Positions 5,677-33,884 of a stretch of 64,000 bases of DNA are shown one piece after another (the first letter of the stretch is position 1; the number at the start of each line of letters is the position of its first letter). A program made the position numbers and the translations under genes. The stretch spans positions 5,344,001 through 5,408,000 of the forward strand of contig CAWIAD010000002.1 in the NCBI GenBank assembly GCA_963833985.1. Direction: 5' to 3'. The DNA is from an uncultured Planctomycetaceae bacterium (GTDB taxonomy: Bacteria > Planctomycetota > Planctomycetia > Isosphaerales > Isosphaeraceae). The notes beneath the pieces were generated by a model. It saw only the letters and a list, made by a program, of their open reading frames with translations, did no database searches and was not told the origin of the DNA.

Positions 5677-6306
5677 TCAAGGTTTCCACGCTTTGACTTG
5701 CGGGGACGGATCCGCCGCATGGCTCGCGGAGGTCCCTGCCTGCGCCAGTCCTGTACGCCGGGCCGCGTACAGCCGCTCCCGGCGCTGCTTCCTCGTCTCC
5801 TTCACTCCCACGGCTGCCCTGACCGCGGCGGGCTTGCTCTCGGGACGCGGGTCGGTCCGGGGGTCGCGCTTCAGCGCTGGATGGTCGTCGAATCCCGACC
5901 GGGAACAGACCATGCAACAGAACACCGACCCGCGAGGGATCGGGCCGTGATGCGGACAGACCGATTGGGGGGTGAACGACCCGACCGGGAAAAGCGGCAT
6001 CAGCCGGGGCGGACGATCGCGTGCATCACCCGAGAGGCTGCGCACTGCGCCACTTGCCACCTCGTCCCGTGTGTGCAGGTCCCCGCTGAATCGGGTATTG
6101 CTGGAACGGGAGATCTGATGATTCGCTTTCTCCCGCGCTCGGGAGACCCCCAGCTGGATGCTGCGGCAACTGAGCCGTTCCTGCCTGGCGATCTCCTTGA
6201 TGCTCTTGCCGCAACGAACCTCTTCGAGCCAGGAAAGCTCGCGGCCCTGGCAGGCCACGGAACGCTGGGGCCTGCTCATGCCAGGTAAACCACGTGTACC
6301 GGCCAT
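5677..6306 (-). CDS. Putative transcription regulator: HTH plus Cys/His (Zn-binding?) domain
   Basis: GKSIKEIARQERLSCRSIQLGVSRAR is HTH-like; CPHH...CCMVC...DDHP cluster; first gene of the head operon. Confidence 0.5.
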   Translation of the reverse strand: MAGTRGLPGMSRPQRSVACQGRELSWLEEVRCGKSIKEIARQERLSCRSIQLGVSRAREKANHQISRSSNTRFSGDLHTRDEVASGAVRSLSGDARDRPPRLMPLFPVGSFTPQSVCPHHGPIPRGSVFCCMVCSRSGFDDHPALKRDPRTDPRPESKPAAVRAAVGVKETRKQRRERLYAARRTGLAQAGTSASHAADPSPQVKAWKP

Positions 6307-6617
6307 GTCGGTCGATCCTCAGCCGCCCGGCCACGATCGACTCTGCTCTCAGAATGCGCCAGGAATCTGGCTGATTTGCGTGAAAGACCTCCTAGTGGCC
6401 CATCACTCGTCTCTCAAGTTGTTATGCATCAAGAACTTGGACAAAAAGAAAAAAAACCGCCGGTGCGCAAAGAAAGGTGGCGATCTGGCGTCTTTGTGTC
6501 GCAGACTCAGAAGGGGGAGTGGCGCAATCTGGAATCTGGAATGACCTTATCTAACCAAGCCCGCCCGGCCCGGTCGCCTGCGCAGGCTCCCCTGAATCCG
6601 TCCGCCGATCTGATCGC

Positions 6618-7514
6618 TCAGGCCTCGTCCGCGCGCCCCGGCTGTCCTGATGGGGTTTCCACGGAGCGGGCCAACGGCAAGCTGGACGTCAGATGCACGC
6701 GTCCAAAGAGTGCCTGTCCGGAAAGGGCGGCGTCGGCGTGGCGACGCGGCCGCTTGCCGCCAGCGACCGGAACGGCCCGGGGCACTGACCAGGAAGCCGT
6801 TGCGGCCTCGTCCCAGTGCCCCGGCTGGCGGCACGGTACGACGACCCGCATCATGAACGCCGCGTGGCAGCCGCTCCCAGCCAGAACGAACAGGTGAAAC
6901 AGCTCATGCGAGCCGAAAACCCCTGGCAGCGGCACCGGCCAGCCTCGCAGGTTGATGAGAGCACCCATGCTGTAGAGAACACCCCCCAGCGGAAGCGGCA
7001 AGAGCGTGCGGTGGCTCAGGCTTCGAGCCAGCTCGCGATAGCAGATCAGAACCCCCCAGCCCATGGTCATGTAGATGGTGGTGGAAAGCCAGATGGGCAA
7101 GACCCCGCCCAACCAGACGCGCGCCGAGCAAAATGCGGCCACGCTCCAGACCACGCTCAGGGTACCGTGCCTCCAGCGGCGACGGAAAAGCGACCACGTG
7201 GCTGGCGTGTAAGTACCGGCAATCAGCAGGTAAATCCCCACGTGGTCCAGCCTGCGGTACCACCCGAGCGCCTCCCCGGAGAGCCGGACAGAGTGGTACA
7301 GGGCGCTGCTGCCGAAGCAGATCACCAGGGTCAGACCATAGAGGACCAGGGTTGCGCGCTTGCCGCGCTGGTAGTGCGTCACCCGGTCGTCGCCCGATGT
7401 GTCCCGCAACGGAGACCTTGCGCGTTCCCAGAAGATCCACGTGAGCGGAAGGGCCAGCATCATGCCCACGCCATGGCTGAGAGCGCTGATCGGCTCTCGA
7501 AGTTCAAGCAGCAT
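6618..7514 (-). CDS. Hemolysin III/PAQR family membrane protein
   Basis: REPISALSHG, SSALYH, RRLDHVGIYLLIAGTYTP and HELFHLFVLAG motifs. Confidence 0.9.
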   Translation of the reverse strand: MLLELREPISALSHGVGMMLALPLTWIFWERARSPLRDTSGDDRVTHYQRGKRATLVLYGLTLVICFGSSALYHSVRLSGEALGWYRRLDHVGIYLLIAGTYTPATWSLFRRRWRHGTLSVVWSVAAFCSARVWLGGVLPIWLSTTIYMTMGWGVLICYRELARSLSHRTLLPLPLGGVLYSMGALINLRGWPVPLPGVFGSHELFHLFVLAGSGCHAAFMMRVVVPCRQPGHWDEAATASWSVPRAVPVAGGKRPRRHADAALSGQALFGRVHLTSSLPLARSVETPSGQPGRADEA

Positions 7515-7638
7515 CGCCGCGGCCCCGGGTTTGTGAGTTGCGTCATCGGTGGACTTTCGACCGCGCCGGGGCCCGTTCTTGAACCATTCCGAAGCTGGAA
7601 CTCGCGTGAGACAACGTTCCAGTCGTGCCTCCGCGGTC

Positions 7639-8580
7639 TCACCGATCCGGTGGGCAACGTTTCCCACGATCGCGCCAGAGCAGCAGTGCGGCAGCGGCCA
7701 GGCCGAAGACCACGAGCGTGCGGGGCTCGGGAACGGGGGTTGGCTGCACCGAACCGGTGATCACCTGGGCTTGCAGTACCGGCTTCGTGGTGCTCGCAAG
7801 CGCCTTGGGGGCAACGTTCTTGGGCGCCTTGATCCCCAGGTCGCTTTCGATCGCCGTGAGGCTTTGCTGGTTCCAGTTCACAAGCTTGCCGGATTTCAGC
7901 TTGAACAGGTTCCCCAGGTCCTGGACGAGCTTGGAATTCATGATCGGGTCGGTATTCGCGTTCGTGGGAACCAGCGTCTGGGCCTGAACAGACGTGCCGG
8001 ATGCGGCTGTGGACGTCGCCGCTACCGAAGACCCCGCCGGGGAGCTGCCGCTCGCGGACGAGGACAAGGACGAGGACGAGGCGGCCAGCCAGGCCAGGGT
8101 GGTGCCGCTCGACGCGGAGGATCCGCCCGCGCCGAAGAGCGGCGGCAGGGGCCTGACCAGGTACACACTCTGCCCGTTATAAACCGCGGCGTGCCCGTTT
8201 GCGGCCAGTGTTTCATCAAGCTGGGACTTGACCTGGGCATCGAACCGGAGCGGACCGGTAGTGGCAGCCGTGCCCGTCGTCGCTGGCGCTGAGTTCACCG
8301 TGGGGTAGTTTTGCGGCAGCGGGTTCCCCTTGAGCTGGACCGCGACATAACTGGGCAGCTCGCCGTTATTCAGAACCACCGGCCCTGCACTCGGGCTGGT
8401 CGGCATGGCAATCGGCTGTCCGTTCTGGTCCAGCACGATGGCATTGGGCAGCTTGCCGAGCTTGATGGTGGAGCACCATGCCAGCGGCCCCATGCCCGTG
8501 CCCGCACCCAGACCGATGCCGAAGATCAGCACCGCCAGTAGCCCGCGGCAGAAACGGTAAAAAAGAGCGATCATGTGCAT
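7639..8580 (-). CDS. PEP-CTERM sorting domain protein
   Basis: N-terminal signal; C-terminal VPEPRTLVVFGLAAAALLLWRDR. Confidence 0.8.
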   Translation of the reverse strand: MHMIALFYRFCRGLLAVLIFGIGLGAGTGMGPLAWCSTIKLGKLPNAIVLDQNGQPIAMPTSPSAGPVVLNNGELPSYVAVQLKGNPLPQNYPTVNSAPATTGTAATTGPLRFDAQVKSQLDETLAANGHAAVYNGQSVYLVRPLPPLFGAGGSSASSGTTLAWLAASSSSLSSSASGSSPAGSSVAATSTAASGTSVQAQTLVPTNANTDPIMNSKLVQDLGNLFKLKSGKLVNWNQQSLTAIESDLGIKAPKNVAPKALASTTKPVLQAQVITGSVQPTPVPEPRTLVVFGLAAAALLLWRDRGKRCPPDR

Positions 8581-20247: not shown

Positions 20248-21090
20248 TCAGGCTTCGACGAGTCGCTGAAGCTCGCGCCACTCCGGGACCCAGTCGCCGA
20301 TGTCATCCGTCATTCGTTCAATACCGATCAAAACCCTCTCGAGGAAAACCTGGGCACTGGGGAAACCAAGCTCCCTGAGTTTGGCGTCAATCGACAGCAA
20401 TAGATCCTTTCCAGAAAATGCGTAGAGAAACGAAGCGTGGCGCGCGCCTCCTTGTAGGAACTCAGGGAGGAACGACGTGAACTTTTGCTCAACGTCGTCA
20501 CAGTCTATGGTCTGAGATTTTGCATGTCTGTCTACAGTCAGCCGGAGACCGGTCCTGCAACTTGGCTCATCGAGAGAATCCGGGAATGGGTGCCTCTGTC
20601 TTCCGCGTGCCTTGCCGAAGCACGAGGGTAGATCGACAAATCTGACCCGGCTTGAGGCGGGTGTCGTGCGGGCGGCCTGGTACGGACCAAGCCGATCTCG
20701 GGCTTCCTCGAGCATGGTCCTGTAGAGATTGCCTGCCGGCGCCGCATCGCTGCCCAGCAGGCTCAAAGCCGGGATGACCACATCCGGATCCAGAAGATAA
20801 TTCTCGATTTCCTTCCTCTCCCAGCGCCACCCGAAGTGAATTCGCCCGTCTGAGTTGGTCCACGCTCTGGGGTGGTCCGTCGGCTGCTGCCACGGTTCGA
20901 CGAAGTCCCCGTCGAGCAGCCCAAAGACGGTCTGCCGGCCCAGCGCTTCGCGGCGGGCAATGACCTTGCTGCCCATGCTGTACTTTCCACCCTGGGGCAG
21001 AACCAGGCATCGGCCGGCGAGCAGCTTCGTGAACACTCGCACATCCGGGCTGTTCGGACCTCCCTCACAGAGAAGCAAGTCTACAGGCAC
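20248..21090 (-). CDS. TOPRIM/DUF4435-like protein
   Basis: LLCEG..D, LDGDF and RKEIENYLL motifs; overlaps the upstream ATPase stop. Confidence 0.65.
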   Translation of the reverse strand: MPVDLLLCEGGPNSPDVRVFTKLLAGRCLVLPQGGKYSMGSKVIARREALGRQTVFGLLDGDFVEPWQQPTDHPRAWTNSDGRIHFGWRWERKEIENYLLDPDVVIPALSLLGSDAAPAGNLYRTMLEEARDRLGPYQAARTTPASSRVRFVDLPSCFGKARGRQRHPFPDSLDEPSCRTGLRLTVDRHAKSQTIDCDDVEQKFTSFLPEFLQGGARHASFLYAFSGKDLLLSIDAKLRELGFPSAQVFLERVLIGIERMTDDIGDWVPEWRELQRLVEA

Positions 21091-22175
21091 AGTCGTCCTC
21101 CCGGCAGCCTGTAGATCTGCTCCCTGCTGAAGACGCTACTGATGGCTTCCGAGTGAGTCGTCAAGATGAACTGGGAGCAAGGCGCCAGGGCGGGCAAGGC
21201 CGACAGCAACGCTTGGGCCAGGGGAGGATGAAGATTCAAATCAAGCTCGTCGATCAGCACAACCGAATGACGGATTTGCTGCCGAACGAATTCGTACAGC
21301 AAGGGCAAGACTGCCTGTTCGCCCGCGGACATCTCCTCGATATCGTATGACCGATTCCCATCCTCGATGATGAAGTAGTAATCCTCCGGGGAGGGCACTC
21401 CACCACGGTACATGGGCTCGGGCATGCCGAAGGATCGCCCAGGGAAGACACGCTTGAAGCTGCGCTGAAGCTCGTCCAGGAAATCCACCTTGCCAGGTCC
21501 CCTGGAGAGCCGGTTCAGCTGCCACCGGTTGAGATGCTCGCGCAGACGCGCGACTCCCACCTGATAGCTTGGCCGTTCAGGGCCTTCCCGACCGCCGTTC
21601 CCTTCGCTCATGCTGGGAGGCGTTGCGAGGTTTCGGAACTGGTCAAACCAGAAGACTCCCGGCAGACGCCCGAACAGGTCTCGGGCAGCCGGATCGGTCT
21701 CCAGAAGCTGTGCGGCATACCAGCGACCCCGGAACTGGTAGAGTTCCGCCTGTGAACGAGCCGAGCAATGCTCGCCCTCGAGCCTGATCGTAACGACCCG
21801 GGAGTCACCCGGTTCAACGTAGACCAAATGCCTTTCAACTGTGGAGCGTGAACGGAACCAGCGGTCGGCCGCCTCCCGGGTGGCGTCGATCTCTTCCTGA
21901 GAAAAGTGCACTTCCAGTTCCACGGCGGGTCTGCCCCACCGCTCATAACGGCCGGAAACCCATCCGAGCCAGTGAAAGTCTTTGACACTTCTTGTGCGCC
22001 AGGATGCCAGCGACAGGCACAAGGCGATCGCTTGCAGAACCGTGGTCTTCCCCGTTCCATTATCGCCCAGCAGCAGGAACTGGTCCGCGATATCCTGGGT
22101 CAACGAATTCCGCAGCTCGATGTCCAGCGTCTCGAATCGCTTGAAATTCTCCAGGTGAATGGACGCAACTCTCAT
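21081..22175 (-). CDS. ABC-type (AAA_15/AAA_21-like) ATPase
   Basis: IHLENFKRF, GDNGTGKT, MSAGEQ, LIDELDLNLHP and ILTTHS; GGAG RBS. Confidence 0.9.
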   Translation of the reverse strand: MRVASIHLENFKRFETLDIELRNSLTQDIADQFLLLGDNGTGKTTVLQAIALCLSLASWRTRSVKDFHWLGWVSGRYERWGRPAVELEVHFSQEEIDATREAADRWFRSRSTVERHLVYVEPGDSRVVTIRLEGEHCSARSQAELYQFRGRWYAAQLLETDPAARDLFGRLPGVFWFDQFRNLATPPSMSEGNGGREGPERPSYQVGVARLREHLNRWQLNRLSRGPGKVDFLDELQRSFKRVFPGRSFGMPEPMYRGGVPSPEDYYFIIEDGNRSYDIEEMSAGEQAVLPLLYEFVRQQIRHSVVLIDELDLNLHPPLAQALLSALPALAPCSQFILTTHSEAISSVFSREQIYRLPGGRLCL

Positions 22176-22498
22176 GGAGGTTCTCCGTGCATGAACGGTT
22201 GCTTCACCGTGAGGCGTGGAGAGTGAAATGTCGAGAGACACCTTGCTCGCCTCCCGGGCGAGCAGCCAGACACCCTTGCGGCTCATCGGCCAGCGCGACG
22301 CAACTCGGGCCGGCCTAATGCTCGGTCGGTTCCTGATGGGTCTGCATTCTACCCGGAATGCGTGCCGGCGGCATCATGCCCATAGACCCTGGTGGTGAGC
22401 GGTTTTCCGGCCGTTCTCGTTGAGTTGCCGTTCTCGAAAATCCTCTCCTCCGTTACGATCCGCGTCATCGGAGGTATTCCAGCAGGCCAGGGAAGGAC

Positions 22499-24109: not shown

Positions 24110-24189
24110 CAGTTGATTGGCAGTCGCACCGGCAGGGTCATGCGGATAGGGACATGCTGCCGGCGAGCCTTCCCGGTTTCCCAAAAGCC

Positions 24190-24388
24190 CTCTTCCTGGC
24201 ACACGTTTCCTTTCGCCTCATGCCTTCTCTCTCTTGATCCAGAAATTGGCACGATCGGAATCGTACCCCACGAGGGGAGCGCGGACGGCCCCTCTTCCTG
24301 GCACACGATTCCATTCGTGTCGGGATAAACTCACGGTCAACGAGAAACAGGATCGTCTCAAGATCTTGAGGCATCAAGGAGACACGAT
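24190..24388. repeat. Cluster of GACACGAT palindromic repeats; the last copy is split by the intron
   Basis: Copies at ~24249 and ~24299; half copy GACACGAT at 24381-24388 whose other half is at 28398-28416. Confidence 0.85.
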
Positions 24389-24495
24389 GTAGAGTCGAGG
24401 TGTGGCGCGGTGGGCTCGAGTCGATGGCTCGGCTGGGCCTCGTTTCCACACCCCGCTCATCAAACTGGACGGGCGGTTTTCCCGCATCCAGCTTT
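24389..24495 (-). ncRNA. Group II intron domains V-VI
   Basis: AAAGCTGGATGCGGGAAAACCGCCCGTCCAGTTT (AGC triad hairpin), then GATGAGCGGGGTGTGG...CCACACCTCGACTCTAC. Confidence 0.9.
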
Positions 24496-24552
24496 CGGAC
24501 AAGGCTTGTCTCATCGGTTGAGTTCACACGTTCGCTCACGAAACCATCGCGG

Positions 24553-25152
24553 CTAGGTTCGTTGCAGCTGGTAAAGATGCAACTCCTGGTGCAGGTATCT
24601 GTCAGGGTAGCGTCTGAGCCCCTGACCCGGCACCTTGAACTTCGCACACAACCACTGACGTACCCGGTAGCGGACGTGGTGGTTGACTTGGCGATAGGCT
24701 GGGCTCACCGTTCCGATGCGAAAATAGTTGGACCAACCGCGTAACTTGCGATTGATCCGACCAATCTGCATCTCGACGTCCTGTCCAGTGGTCTGGCGCG
24801 TCGTCATCGCACTGATCTCGCTGCACAGCCGAATGATCTTCTTCCGCGATGGGCGTGACCCTATGTAGGATCGGCCCGTTCGTCGGTCGTAGTTCCGGCC
24901 GAGGGTATAACCCAGAAAGTCGAACGTCTCCTCAGGCAGGTGGCACAGCCGCGTCTTGGTCTCGTTCACCGTTAACTTCAGCCTGGACATCATCTTCCGC
25001 ATCACCGTCATGGCCTCTTCGGCCGTGCCGCGACAGCAGATGACGAAGTCGTCCGCATAGTTGACGATTCGCGCGACCAGACGCCGCTCGTGTCCACCAG
25101 TCTTCCATCCCTTCACAAATCGTCGCATGTAGATGTTGGACAACAATGGTGA
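24553..25152 (-). pseudogene. ltrA: Group II intron RT/maturase, 3' half (interrupted)
   Basis: SPLLSNIY, VNYADDFV, FDFLGY and INRKLRGWSNYF; no endonuclease domain. Confidence 0.9.
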
Positions 25153-26806
25153 GATCACGCCCCCAACAATGTTGCGAACTACGTTGTTGGGGGCCTTTCT
25201 CAAAAGGGGACGGACTGACCCGATACACGATGCGGACCTCCTGCTCGTCGATCTCGACCTTCTTCACCAAGGCCCGAACCACCTCCCGTCGCGTGGCCCA
25301 GTCCGGCTCTTGCAACCCTTGCGAGACGCGACGTGCGAACTCCTCCAACTGACCGATCACCAGTCGCAATTCCGCCTCTTGGGCGGCCTCGCCGATTCGT
25401 TGTCGATGCTCCTCCGCCAATCTCGAGAGGCGCGTCCTTGCCGCCGAGATCCGGGGCTCGAACTCCGATTTGTCGAGCAACCCGTCGCCGTAAGCATCGA
25501 TTAATCGAGAAATCATCTTTTTCACATTATTTATCAATTTGCCGAGATGCTCCACCTCCTGATTCGGCCCGCCCTGGGCACCCTGCAGCCGCCGCTCGTA
25601 CTCCTCCCGGACCCGCTCCGGCTCGGACAGGAGACCTCGTAAGTCCTCCCAGACGGCAGCGTCAAGGATATCGGTGCGGATCTGCTTGTTCCAGCAGAGG
25701 CGCTGCCCGCCGAAACGATAGGCGTCAGAGCCCGTGCAACGGTAGTACGCGTAGCGGACCCTACCCTTGCCCTCGAACGCGGCTCGGCTCGTCGGCTTGC
25801 CGTAGCAGCCGTAGCCGCAGCGCTTGCAGACGACCAGGCCCTGGAGCAGATATCGGCCACCGCCGGGCCGGTCGCGACGGCGTTGCCGGTTCTCTTCAAG
25901 CTGGGCCTGGACAGCCAGGAAGAGGTCTTCGCTCACCAGCCCGGGGACTTCAATGAAGATTTGATCTTCCGAGGATGTATCAACCCGTGAGACCGGTCGC
26001 CGGGAGTGTTCGGGGCGGCCTCGCTGCGGGCGGAGGCGTTGAGGTTTGAACTCACCTGAGCGCGTCTTGCCGAAGGCCGCGGTCCCCTTGTAGGCAGGGT
26101 TCTTGAGGATCAACCAGACCGTCGCGCAATCCCAGGCCGATTTCCCGGTCCGCGTCGGGATACTGTCGCGCCGGAGGCGTCGGCACACCTCGCCGATCGA
26201 GCACCGTTCCTGACCCACCCATTCGAAGATCTTCCGCACGACCCGGGACTCTTCAGCGAGGACCTGATAACGCGCCTCGCCACCTCCCTCGTGCTTGCCG
26301 ATGTAACGGTAGCCGTACGGCGCGCCGCTGAGGACGTTGACCGAACCGCGGCGGGCGGCGTGTTGCTTGCCCCTGCGGCAACGCTCCATGATCTTGGCGC
26401 GCTCGTATTCCGCGATCATTCCCTGGACCTGAAGCAGCAGGTCGGCTTCCGGACTGCGGCCGACGGGGTTGCGCAAGAAGACGACCTCGACACCGCACCG
26501 GATAAGTTCCTCAAGGATCAAGACCTGATAGGCATACTTGCGTGAAAGTCGATCCGGATCGAGCATATAGAGGCGGTCGATGGCTCCAGCGGCGGCTTGG
26601 TCCCGAAGTCGCTCGAGTGCCGGTCGGGCCAGGATGTAACCGCTGACGCCGTCGTCCACGAAGTGCAGTTCGGGCTCGCATTCCAAGCCATCAGTGGCGA
26701 TCCGCTGAGTGACCGCCTCGAGCTGGCTGGCGATCGTGTCCTCCTTCTCCTGCTGCTCCCCCGAAACCCGGGCGTAGAGCGCCACGCGGAGATTGTCCGT
26801 GATCAT
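24932..26806 (-). CDS. Large serine recombinase (resolvase + recombinase + Zn-ribbon + coiled coil)
   Basis: ALYARVS catalytic motif, DDGVSG, DRLSR, APYGY, LKNPAYKG, CKRC...YYRC. ORF reads past the element end into intron sequence. Confidence 0.95.
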   Translation of the reverse strand: MITDNLRVALYARVSGEQQEKEDTIASQLEAVTQRIATDGLECEPELHFVDDGVSGYILARPALERLRDQAAAGAIDRLYMLDPDRLSRKYAYQVLILEELIRCGVEVVFLRNPVGRSPEADLLLQVQGMIAEYERAKIMERCRRGKQHAARRGSVNVLSGAPYGYRYIGKHEGGGEARYQVLAEESRVVRKIFEWVGQERCSIGEVCRRLRRDSIPTRTGKSAWDCATVWLILKNPAYKGTAAFGKTRSGEFKPQRLRPQRGRPEHSRRPVSRVDTSSEDQIFIEVPGLVSEDLFLAVQAQLEENRQRRRDRPGGGRYLLQGLVVCKRCGYGCYGKPTSRAAFEGKGRVRYAYYRCTGSDAYRFGGQRLCWNKQIRTDILDAAVWEDLRGLLSEPERVREEYERRLQGAQGGPNQEVEHLGKLINNVKKMISRLIDAYGDGLLDKSEFEPRISAARTRLSRLAEEHRQRIGEAAQEAELRLVIGQLEEFARRVSQGLQEPDWATRREVVRALVKKVEIDEQEVRIVYRVSPSPFEKGPQQRSSQHCWGRDLTIVVQHLHATICEGMEDWWTRAASGRANRQLCGRLRHLLSRHGRRGHDGDAEDDVQAEVNGERDQDAAVPPA

Positions 26807-27171
26807 GGTTTGTCAAACCCCCCCGACCTTGGACTGGATAGTGTGGACCACAGTCGCGTGGTTGCGGCTGGGTCGCGGCCGATCCAGGCGCTGCGAAACG
26901 ACCGGGATCAAGACCTGATATGCACGCGCGATCAATTGCTCCTGAAGCCGAGTGAACTCGAAGTGGCGGGTGACAGGAGGACTGAACGTGGGCCTCCGTG
27001 GGGACGTGATCATGTCGACTCCTCCTCTCCGAGAGCGCGGCCGCCAGCCTGCCTTGGATCGGGATCGAGTCGGGGCTGCCATCCGTGCCCGTACTTCGGT
27101 CGAAGCCGCGATCTGGAAATGACAGAGTCAGGAATCAGGGACGATTTTGCAACATTGTTGGGGGCGTGATC
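25153..27171 (-). mobile_element. Minimal serine-recombinase integrative element (2015 bp plus duplicated GATC core)
   Basis: Perfect 23-bp inverted ends at 25153-25175 and 27149-27171, both including GATC; removal restores the RT frame. Confidence 0.92.
26813..27013 (-). CDS. 66-aa accessory ORF of the recombinase element (possible directionality factor)
   Basis: Strong RBS GGAGAGGAGGAG before ATG at 27013; ends 6 nt before the recombinase ATG. Function is inferred. Confidence 0.65.
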   Translation of the reverse strand: MITSPRRPTFSPPVTRHFEFTRLQEQLIARAYQVLIPVVSQRLDRPRPSRNHATVVHTIQSKVGGV

Positions 27172-27866
27172 GGTGCACCTTGCGGTGTACCCATCCCCTG
27201 GTCTTTATTCCGGGTCGTTCGATGGCGCTGCCCCTTCCCGTCGGTTTCTTCCACCGGTGTTTCCAGCCACATCTTGATCAGCCGCAGGACGCGACCGTCG
27301 CTGATGCGCCGTGACGCCGATTTCATTAACTCGGAATGGGGTATGCTATCGAAATATCCAGATAAGTTCGCGTCCACCACCTCGGTGTGCCCCGTCTTGA
27401 GCAGCCGTTCGACTTCGCGGACGGCGTCCAGGGCGCTGCGCTCCGGGCGGTAGGCGTGTTGTTCCGGCTCCAGGTCGGCCTCGAAGATCGGCTCCAAGAC
27501 CAGCACCGCAGCCATCTGCACCACACGATCCTTGATGCAAGGAATGCCCAGCGGCCTTTGCTTGCCGTCCCCTTTGGGGATGTACACGCGCCGCACCGCC
27601 TGGGGTTGATACGTCTCCTTACGAAGTTGTTCCGCCAGTTCGTCCAGCCATCGTTCCTTCCCGGACGCCTCGATGTCGGCGAAACTCTGGCCGTCGATCC
27701 CCGGCGCGCCGCCGTTGGCACGGCAGCGTTCGTAGGCGAATCCCAGAACGTCACGTCGATAAATCTTGTCGTACAGGACGTAGAACCGATAGTTGGGCGC
27801 GTTCTTCGCTTTGGTGTGCAACGCCGTCTGCAACTTCCCGACCTTCAGTGGAGGTGATAGACTCAC
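27168..27866 (-). pseudogene. ltrA: Group II intron RT/maturase, 5' half (interrupted)
   Basis: LYDKIYR, GAPGIDG, RRVYIPK, RPLGIP..DRVVQ, YFDSIPH and GTPQGAPI, then the insertion. Confidence 0.92.
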
Positions 27867-28426
27867 GCCAATCTCCCGGCTGTCTGCCGCTTGTTGCGTT
27901 GACCTTGAACCAAGGCCCCTTCCCTCGACCGGAGTTACCCGGCGTCGACGGTACTACGGGCCTCTCCGCCACCCCAGGCAGCCCGGCCGGTCCCTCGCGG
28001 GCGTCCGGTTGAGGGTCACGCGCCCTCACCGCTTGGGGTTTCCCGTGTTGTGTTGATCTCCGTGTGCCGACATGCCGTCGTCAATACCCCGGTGGCCCGC
28101 TGGGTTCTGATCGCTCGTGGGGCGGCCTATTCCAACCGTTTCCCTTTCATCCCCAGCGACGGCGGCCTTCCCCATATTCCAGCAAGGTCGGCGACCACAT
28201 TGGACTTTTCGAGGCCTGCTCAACGTTCACTCGCGTTACGGCCTGTCGGTTCGCTGCATCGCCAAGCGACACATCTGTCTCGAAGGCTCCGACGGTTTCG
28301 TCTCCTCCACCGCCGCTCCGATAGCTACCGGCTGGAGCGACCCAGTTGCCGGGTGGGAGTTACACCCACTGAAGACCAACACCTTTCCACGGCGCACCGG
28401 AATCGTGTCCCACGAGGGAAAAACCC

Positions 28427-29450: not shown

Positions 29451-29470
29451 GGTCTGGTCCGCTCCCTCCC

Positions 29471-29540
29471 ATCTGATCTGACCCGATCTGATCTGATCTG
29501 ATCTGATCTGATCTGATCTGATCTGATCTGATCTGATCCG
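29471..29540. repeat. Pentanucleotide microsatellite (ATCTG)x14, 10 consecutive perfect units
   Basis: Read directly from the sequence; contains 12 GATC sites. Confidence 0.95.
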
Positions 29541-29567
29541 CTCCGCTGCCGTTGCCAGGCCGCTCGC

Positions 29568-32783: not shown

Positions 32784-33884
32784 CTAGTGTCCTGAGTTAG
32801 AAGTTCGCTCACAAACACTCGTCACTCGATCTAAGATCATATCAGCATCTGCCGTCCATACGAAAGGCTTGGGATTTACGTTGTGTTTTGCCAGGAATTC
32901 ATGGATCGCCTGTTCCAACGCCGCCACGCTCCGGAATACTCCACGGCGAATTCGCTTCTCGGTAATCTCCGCGAAGAATCGTTCAACCTGGTTCAGCCAA
33001 GAGCCGCTGGTGGGAGTGAAATGCAGATGATACTCGGGATGGCGAGCGAACCACCGCTTCACGGCTGGAGCTTTGTGTGTGCCGTAGTTGTCCATGACGA
33101 GGTGAATCTCGACGCCTGGTGCTTTGGCGATCTGGCTATCGATCTCGTTGAGGAATTTGAGGAATTCTTGTTGTCGATGGCGACGGTAGCATTTGCCAAT
33201 CACACGACCTGTCGCGACGTCCAAGGCGGCGAACAGCGAAGTCGTCCCATTGCGTACATAATCCGGAGTTCGCCTCTCCGCCTGGCCAGGCCCCATGGGA
33301 AGCAACGGCTGGGTACGGTCCAACGCTTGCACCTGGCTCTTCTCGTCGATGCTCAAGACGATAGCGCGCTCCGGCGGGCTCATATACAACCCGACGATGT
33401 CGCGGACCTTCTCGATGAAAAAGGGGTCCGTGGAAAGCTTGAACGTCTCGCTGCGGTGAGGCTTCAACTCGAACGCTCGCCAGATACGCGAGATCGCTGT
33501 CTGAGACAAGCCGACGGCTTCCGCCATGCCCCGAGTGCTCCAATGCGTGGCGGCCTTGGGTTTCTCCTCCAGAGTCTTGGTCACAACGGCCTCGACCATT
33601 GCGTCCGTGATTTTGCAGGGCGCCCCCGGCCTTGGCTCGTCGGACAGGCCGTCGAGACGATCGAGGAGGAAACGTTTCCGCCATTTCCCGACCGTCACGA
33701 CATTCACCCGGAGCTGTGCGGCGACTTCCTGATTATCGAAACCTTGAGCGCAAGCCAAGATGATCCGCGAACGGAGGGCGAGACGCTGGCTGGTCTTGGG
33801 CCGGCGCGACCACGCTTCGAGTTTCTGGCGCTCGACATCATTCAAAGTGAGAGTAGCCTTGGGGCGACCACCTTTATTCATCAT
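32784..33884 (-). CDS. IS630 transposase
   Basis: [15 protein letters not shown] and [13 protein letters not shown] motifs; stop codon is formed at the target TA. Confidence 0.95.

Follow-up and report, generated by a model that had tools for sequence, protein, structure and literature searches.

A two-kilobase serine-recombinase element inserted at a conserved codon of group II intron reverse transcriptases

In a 64,000-nucleotide stretch of DNA from an uncultured Planctomycetaceae bacterium (GCA_963833985.1, contig CAWIAD010000002.1, positions 5,344,001 to 5,408,000; hereafter the window), the reverse transcriptase (RT) gene of a group II intron is interrupted by a short piece of DNA that codes for a large serine recombinase. 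What is this piece of DNA, does it choose its target, and how might it move? A preliminary description, made from the sequence alone, had read it as a minimal large-serine-recombinase element that acts as a hyperparasite, aiming at the conserved PQG..I/SP codons of the RT (the slash marks the break) and thereby breaking the gene. Reconstruction of the locus agreed with the geometry given there. The RT reading breaks at GATC (27168-27171) and picks up again past a second GATC (25153-25156), and removing 2015 bp leaves a single open RT frame of 432 aa. The inverted arms at the two ends are perfect for 23 nt (25 of 26 nt are identical overall), and in this copy the joined ends, which represent the reconstructed attP, form a perfect 42-bp palindrome.

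Table 1. Features of the element and of its host intron in the window.
Feature	Position in window	Strand	Basis or remark
Mobile element, 2015 bp between crossovers	25153..27171, including both GATC	-	genomic copies, empty alleles
5' att junction (host RT N-half and attP arm)	27149..27171	-	probable AT core 27169-27170
3' att junction (attP arm and host RT C-half)	25153..25175	-	probable AT core 25154-25155
Additional 11-bp inverted repeat (hairpin) of the arm core, next to the 3' end on its inner side	25159..25194	.	
Large serine recombinase body, 550 aa	25157..26806	-	catalytic, recombinase and zinc-ribbon domains
Conserved 66-aa ORF (FExxRL..L..AY..L.P)	26813..27013	-	alignment of 59
Latent 52-codon C-terminal tail of the recombinase	27010..27168	-	in frame across the circle junction only
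Host group II intron, 1994 nt once the element is removed	24389..28397	-	ends set by flank divergence of genomic copies
RT gene, 5' half	27172..27866	-	RVT_1/GIIM, TIGR04416
RT gene, 3' half (YADD and maturase domain)	24553..25152	-	RVT_1/GIIM, TIGR04416

The host has both the RNA domains and the RT/maturase ORF of a group II intron: profile searches matched each half of the RT (Table 1), and Rfam models placed D1-D4 at 28231-28371 and domain V/VI at 24414-24496. The intron is flanked by a genomic repeat, and an interrupted host gene is not evident within the window. Its target is a short, clustered palindromic repeat (24188-24420 and 28398-28418), whose motif has 27 exact matches genome-wide, seven of them followed by an intron start. 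Within the element, the 2015 bp are taken up by the tail, the 66-aa ORF and the recombinase. The preliminary description had listed the recombinase and the 66-aa ORF as the only cargo; both are present, but it had overlooked the tail as a third coding piece. The window element carries none of the conjugation, mobilisation or resistance cargo of Tn4451 or Tn5397, and no sigma-70 promoter match was found for it. The 3' arm doubles as coding DNA for the last residues of the recombinase body, and just inside it lies the hairpin (z -3.8; equalled in 0 of 200 shuffles). Among RT-flanked 3' ends, 37 of 87 fold below -12 kcal/mol, chiefly in the close clade.

The source genome contains 11 near-identical copies of the element, which differ internally at 0-2 positions (the others from the window's copy at 1-2); one of them carries a 1-bp frameshift. 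Nine of these lie at the intron RT codon (seven in sense and two inverted orientation), and two lie off target, at look-alike sequences in unrelated loci. A search for empty intron alleles, as the preliminary description had proposed, yielded two, each with an open 432-aa RT frame, which together with the nine filled introns makes it clear that the insertion reflects neither chance nor misassembly. Thus, nine of at least 11 full-length copies of the host intron are silenced. A profile of the family's attB sites places the two off-target sites, in their empty form, among the best 0.03% and 0.05% of all positions in the genome, and gives its three highest scores to the two empty introns and to a distant second RT, which is intact and unoccupied. 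The genome also holds an older element remnant (81% identity over 398 bp), and a twelfth junction coincides with a contig break. One of the filled introns is itself broken in its 3' half by an IS-like insert of 1283 bp that contains a frame of 411 aa (G000 C2:2147542-2148824), a third nested element.

Large serine recombinases join attP and attB at a short central core. The preliminary description had centred attP on a GATC core, and here the genomic copies call for revision. AT is found at both junctions in 10 of the 11 copies; of the two off-target copies, one has nothing beyond AT repeated between its ends, and in the second AT at one junction is paired with TT at the opposite one. Since the first of these lacks the repeat of a full GATC, GATC is rejected as a 4-bp core, and the core probably consists of the 2 bp AT. 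Across the family the core tracks the target codon (AT, CT or GT), and the two junctions share it in 32 of the 50 complete copies. The 18 mismatches could reflect tolerance or a swapping of flanks between copies; serine recombinases generally fail to religate mismatched ends (PMC11722253). Nor is perfect attP symmetry a family-wide trait, as only 14 of 68 are perfect (median 19 of 22 arm bases matching). When attB arms were compared with the outer attP motif, the SPLL-side arm gave a weak optimum at a 5-bp inward shift (0.51, against 0.45 at 6 bp), a spacing described for large serine integrases (PMC11722253), and the PQG-side arm gave no clear peak.

We then asked how far this choice of target extends, using the best 79 and 80 loci from two scans for relatives, which returned at least 548/593 and at least 577/601 matching stretches, respectively. 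These 159 loci have 318 ends, of which 64 lacked an arm and 15 had too little flank, leaving 239 that could be classified. Of these ends, 179 break an RT at this codon with identical phase (90 next to N-halves and 89 next to C-halves) and 60 fall elsewhere; after removal of duplicates the figure is 170 of 226, while only 167 of 20,000 random positions pass. Most of the flanking RTs share 22-52% identity with the RT of the window, and a few share 77-86%. Complete copies with an N- and a C-half number 24 in sense and 26 in inverted orientation. The length of complete elements lies between 1920 and 2046 bp in 106 of 107 cases. This analysis bears out the claim that the element aims at the PQG..I/SP codons of RT genes. 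It had been proposed that homologous elements at unrelated sites would speak against targeting. Such insertions do occur, in two of the 11 genomic copies and in some branches that sit in other mobile-element genes, without overturning it.

Among the matches listed, the closest relatives are from Planctomycetota, and named carrier records extend to Chloroflexota, Acidobacteriota, Spirochaetales and several proteobacterial groups. Within the host family, a match with E <=1e-100 is present in 22 of 120 genomes. A tree was built from 132 sequences, each represented by its longest single alignment of at least 400 aa (28 of the 159 loci were dropped for length); on it, RT targeting is spread over the majority of branches, and nested clades occupy other sites. 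Two members (L053 and L159) interrupt an IS256 transposase at the same profile position, and other insertions lie in a HARE-HTH gene (L112), beside an IS200 fragment (L036) and at a weak rve match (L029); the Pfam check of the IS256 and HARE-HTH clades covered one or two members each. The inner arms are altered in L053, L055, L056 and L159 (one IS256 position) and in L112, L114, L146 and L157 (HARE-HTH). First readings of L074 and L076 as IS1595 were not confirmed, as no arms were found, nor were those of L047 as IS5 and L145 as a DDE transposase, which had no Pfam match. In L068 an insertion lies in intron domain V (2619-2650), where the element's arm completes the domain V stem (E 0.09, below the gathering score), and an RT match that is gapless at the motif lies upstream. 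Plasmid pDK1 (L160) carries a copy at the RT codon, with two more ‘recombinase family’ genes just downstream of the RT flank (5799-8005). A distant recombinase gene lies near L006, L011, L038 and L039. Two distant recombinase relatives in one genome (L170 and L175), each with one weak arm and non-RT flanks, possibly represent another target class.

Near-identical elements were found in different RTs of one genome. Eighteen complete elements have two N-half or two C-half flanks; for many of them the assembly is built from short reads, and these flanks may result from misjoining. On one contig (G003 C63; L162 and L177), two copies 13 kb apart on opposite strands have reciprocally swapped RT halves, as inversion between the copies would give, and RT halves are likewise swapped around a copy in another genome (L173). 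Excision from such swapped flanks would yield chimeric RTs.

The preliminary description had overlooked that the recombinase gene itself contains the att site. The enzyme combines Resolvase, Recombinase and Zn_ribbon_recom domains, all above the gathering score, and Y11, R13, S15 and four Cys are invariant among 69 sequences; these canonical domains are complete without the tail. As integrated in the window, the frame is stop-free inside the element and runs on to 24932, giving 624 aa with a host-derived end, and the integrated forms in this genome carry unrelated tails of 74, 48, 25 and 23 aa. Integration thus changes the C-terminus of the enzyme. At all 121 loci with a mapped 3' end the frame reaches the crossover without a stop; it terminates on the far side at 95 loci and continues to the contig edge at 26. 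The crossing phase is identical in 120 of the 121. Among the database proteins listed, 115 have host-derived tails of 1-340 aa.

When the same frame is continued into the 5' end of the element, as it would be in a closed circle, at least 30 codons remain open in 120 of 122 distinct ends, compared with 44 and 5 for the other two frames. With clustered ends, the continued frame is open in 27 of 29, the other two forward frames in 8 and 4, and the reverse frames in 10-15. Beyond the arm, pN/pS in this tail is 0.30, against 2.0 and 1.18 in the other frames, values from pairs that are not independent, and an Arg that is 98% conserved is encoded by all six codons. The tail appears to be neither an internal repeat of the body nor kin of the 66-aa ORF (hhalign probability 0.5%). 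In the window, the circle would encode body and conserved tail as a 602-aa protein followed directly by the 66-aa ORF: the stop of the tail overlaps the ATG of that ORF, which ends 6 bp ahead of the recombinase start, so that the circle would be almost wholly coding. Given the lack of a stop inside the element and the conserved tail across the circle junction, the full enzyme is probably encoded by the excised circle only.

Four database proteins combine body and tail: P0121, P0193 and P0201 (3 of 120 listed) and P0012 (1 of 120 listed). P0121 has exactly the predicted junction, and P0012 and P0193 have one extra residue at the joint. These fusions show that the joined DNA occurs, whether as a circle or as a head-to-tail tandem. 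A circle (attP) junction was found neither in 161 loci nor in viral contigs, nor among the joints listed for sequencing runs X1-X4 (low-depth contigs, shares 0.20-0.36, one study); in X4 one contig represents the empty allele of a related RT only.

The 66-aa ORF has its strict motif in 90 of 132 5' ends. The window's copy has no Pfam family, and five of 59 members gave single matches at E 0.02-0.08; searches of the Atlas and the PDB likewise returned no known family, with best Atlas matches of 0.87-0.88, all to hypothetical proteins, and a best PDB match at E 0.055. Its position, together with what is generally known of such enzymes, makes the protein a natural guess as a candidate directionality factor.

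Taken together, these data make it very likely that this is an IS-sized element moved by its own large serine recombinase, with the DNA of the RT PQG..[IL]/SP motif as its attB. The element is a parasite of a parasite, preying on group II intron RTs. As the genomic copies show, it inserts precisely at one RT codon, in either orientation, and breaks the RT; the two orientations would follow from the symmetry of its attP arms. By the chemistry of serine recombinases, it would then leave as a circle of 2015 bp whose attP has two-fold symmetry and recombines with attB at a 2-bp core. We hold this excision and integration to be highly likely. Several observations weigh against the model: a circle junction was absent from the loci, viral contigs and listed joints searched, the fused proteins may stem from tandems, 60 ends lie away from the RT motif, cores differ between the junctions in 18 of 50 copies, the 5-bp shift is weak, and an intact RT with a high-scoring site in the same genome stays unoccupied. 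With attP inside the recombinase gene, an integrated copy is left with the 550-aa body and whatever tail the host supplies, as its sequence indicates. This layout may act as a direction switch, in which the body form, probably with the 66-aa protein, would excise and the full-length form made from the circle would integrate; for this step we regard the chances as about even, and for the specific proposal that the tail sets direction as slightly poorer than that.

Could the family instead reflect a transposon of the TndX/TnpX type with relaxed specificity, piling up in RT genes where insertions do no harm? The 60 ends at other sites, the mismatched cores and the two off-target genomic copies are what such an enzyme might leave. 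Tolerance alone, however, would scatter insertions along the gene, and one codon in one phase is hit in very divergent RTs; moreover, the off-target sites are themselves attB-like, and many of the other sites are clade-specific, as with the shared IS256 position, so that we judge this account distinctly unlikely. A further account, to which we give somewhat less than an even chance and which is compatible with targeting, is that only two or three insertions occurred in this genome, after which the filled intron spread as a composite, through retrohoming with RT supplied by intact introns or through gene conversion. One base in the 3' half of the intron is C in all seven sense copies and A in the two inverted copies and the two empty introns, which suggests that intron and element were copied together, and filled introns at different genomic sites retain intact ends. 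The Fisher p of 0.028 for the split between sense and inverted copies (7/0 against 0/2) is overstated, as the copies are kin. Other variants conflict with this history: one element variant occurs in two copies with differing intron alleles, and one intron variant is common to a sense and an inverted copy. The off-target copies and the near-identical elements in different RTs also attest to independent movement.

Two other readings concern what the element encodes and whom it serves. The frame at the 5' end might encode a small protein in its own right, or reflect a DNA signal that is conserved, instead of being a recombinase tail. An in-frame start precedes the conserved motif in 55 of 120 tails (ATG in 8, GTG or TTG in 47), and the recombinase is complete in its canonical domains without it, but 63 have no start, the window copy among them, which has no ATG, GTG or TTG ahead of the motif (the remaining two lack the motif). 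Synonymous variation in the tail excludes a pure DNA signal, and a body without its own stop that meets the tail in phase, together with the fused database proteins, argues against a separate protein. We consider this reading unlikely, and it is likely that the tail genuinely belongs to the enzyme encoded by the circle. Alternatively, the element might be a switch of benefit to the host that restores the RT by regulated excision, like the skin or fdxN elements. Precise excision would restore the RT frame, and most full-length introns here are silenced; against this, the element is patchy within the host family, has multiple recent copies, some of them off target, and has no regulator gene, and its recombinase scores 100.8 against the NCBIfam cut-off of 375 for XisF, leaving a host switch very improbable indeed.

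The preferred reading of a targeted, self-moving parasite of introns can be extended, tentatively and with a little less than even confidence, to an undescribed class of insertion sequences, 2 kb long and found across phyla, whose serine integrases direct them into other mobile elements (RTs of group II introns in the main, with branches in IS256 and others). Such elements would set direction through a circularly permuted gene, in that the full-length enzyme competent for integration would be encoded by the excised circle only, and would ride in spliceable introns and swap RT halves between intron lineages by recombination between copies. For group II introns the element family is a common antagonist that seems to have gone unnoticed, and this has a bearing on the frequent disruption of introns in bacteria. 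The family also supplies hundreds of naturally occurring serine integrases whose attP and attB are mapped, with a symmetric attP and retargeting by clade, in which the evolution of specificity can be studied. Through the circle-only tail and the 66-aa protein, the control of direction is open to direct tests. As database enzymes nearly all end in host-derived sequence, cloning from annotation would test the wrong form.

Elsewhere in the window we noted a DDE_3 and HTH transposase (32784-33884), which we take to be IS630-like, an AAA_21 (AbiEii-like) ATPase followed by a 280-aa protein without a Pfam match (20248-22286), a possible defence pair, and tandem ATCTG pentamers between two genes (29461-29550).

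How does the element compare with known systems? Its enzyme has the domains of a large serine recombinase of the integrase type, with the catalytic Ser motif. The IS607 family is likewise IS-sized with a serine recombinase, but differs in architecture and in having TnpB: the window enzyme scores 26.3 against the cut-off of 110 for NF033518 and has recombinase and zinc-ribbon domains, with no TnpB. It also falls short of the NCBIfam cut-offs for Ccr (CcrB, 104 against 900; CcrC, 88 against 900), as it does for XisF. In a search of openly accessible articles we found no description of this type of element; it is unmentioned in the available parts of PMC6907783 and PMC6399125. In the part of the PMC10083194 supplements available, which covers only about 1,080 representatives, RVT_1, GIIM, ‘reverse transcriptase’ and ‘maturase’ gave 0 matches, as did the attP and protein motifs of the element family, and ‘ltrA’ gave 14, the two displayed ones lying within protein sequences.

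The element works like the TndX/TnpX elements and the gene-targeting serine integrases, and belongs to no named family tested. In Tn4451 and Tn4453 a single large serine recombinase, TnpX, both integrates and excises, with a 2-bp core and preferred and secondary sites. TndX is described as doing the same for Tn5397, preferring a Fic-coding sequence (PMC4430133). Those transposons are loaded with conjugation or resistance genes, Tn5397 reaching 21 kb, whereas the window element is 2 kb and cargo-free; it further differs from all of them in its symmetric attP, its insertion in both orientations, its target in the gene of a mobile element and a core that varies with the target codon. Distantly related large serine integrases are reported to share one target gene family (Durrant et al., PMC10083194); these enzymes likewise have three domains and a conserved-gene target, and a weak attP/attB shift is suggested here on one arm. 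As in the window element, attP crosses the integrase gene in SSV viruses, in phage Mx8 and in streptococcal rumA ICEs. For Mx8, whose integrase is a tyrosine recombinase, integration is reported to swap the C-terminus and to leave a less active form (PMC4701971), and for the rumA ICEs, which use a serine recombinase, the C-terminus is swapped on integration and a functional difference has been proposed (PMC4383910). Unlike these phages, viruses and large ICEs, the present element holds little beyond the split gene and one small ORF, and its circle-only tail is under purifying selection across the element family. The repeated targeting of another mobile element's gene by an integrase clade is described for helper-embedded satellites (PMC10111431), but these are phage satellites in prophage late genes with no intron involved, whereas this element sits in an intron RT. 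In summary, its chemistry is ordinary, and its lifestyle and gene layout are unusual.
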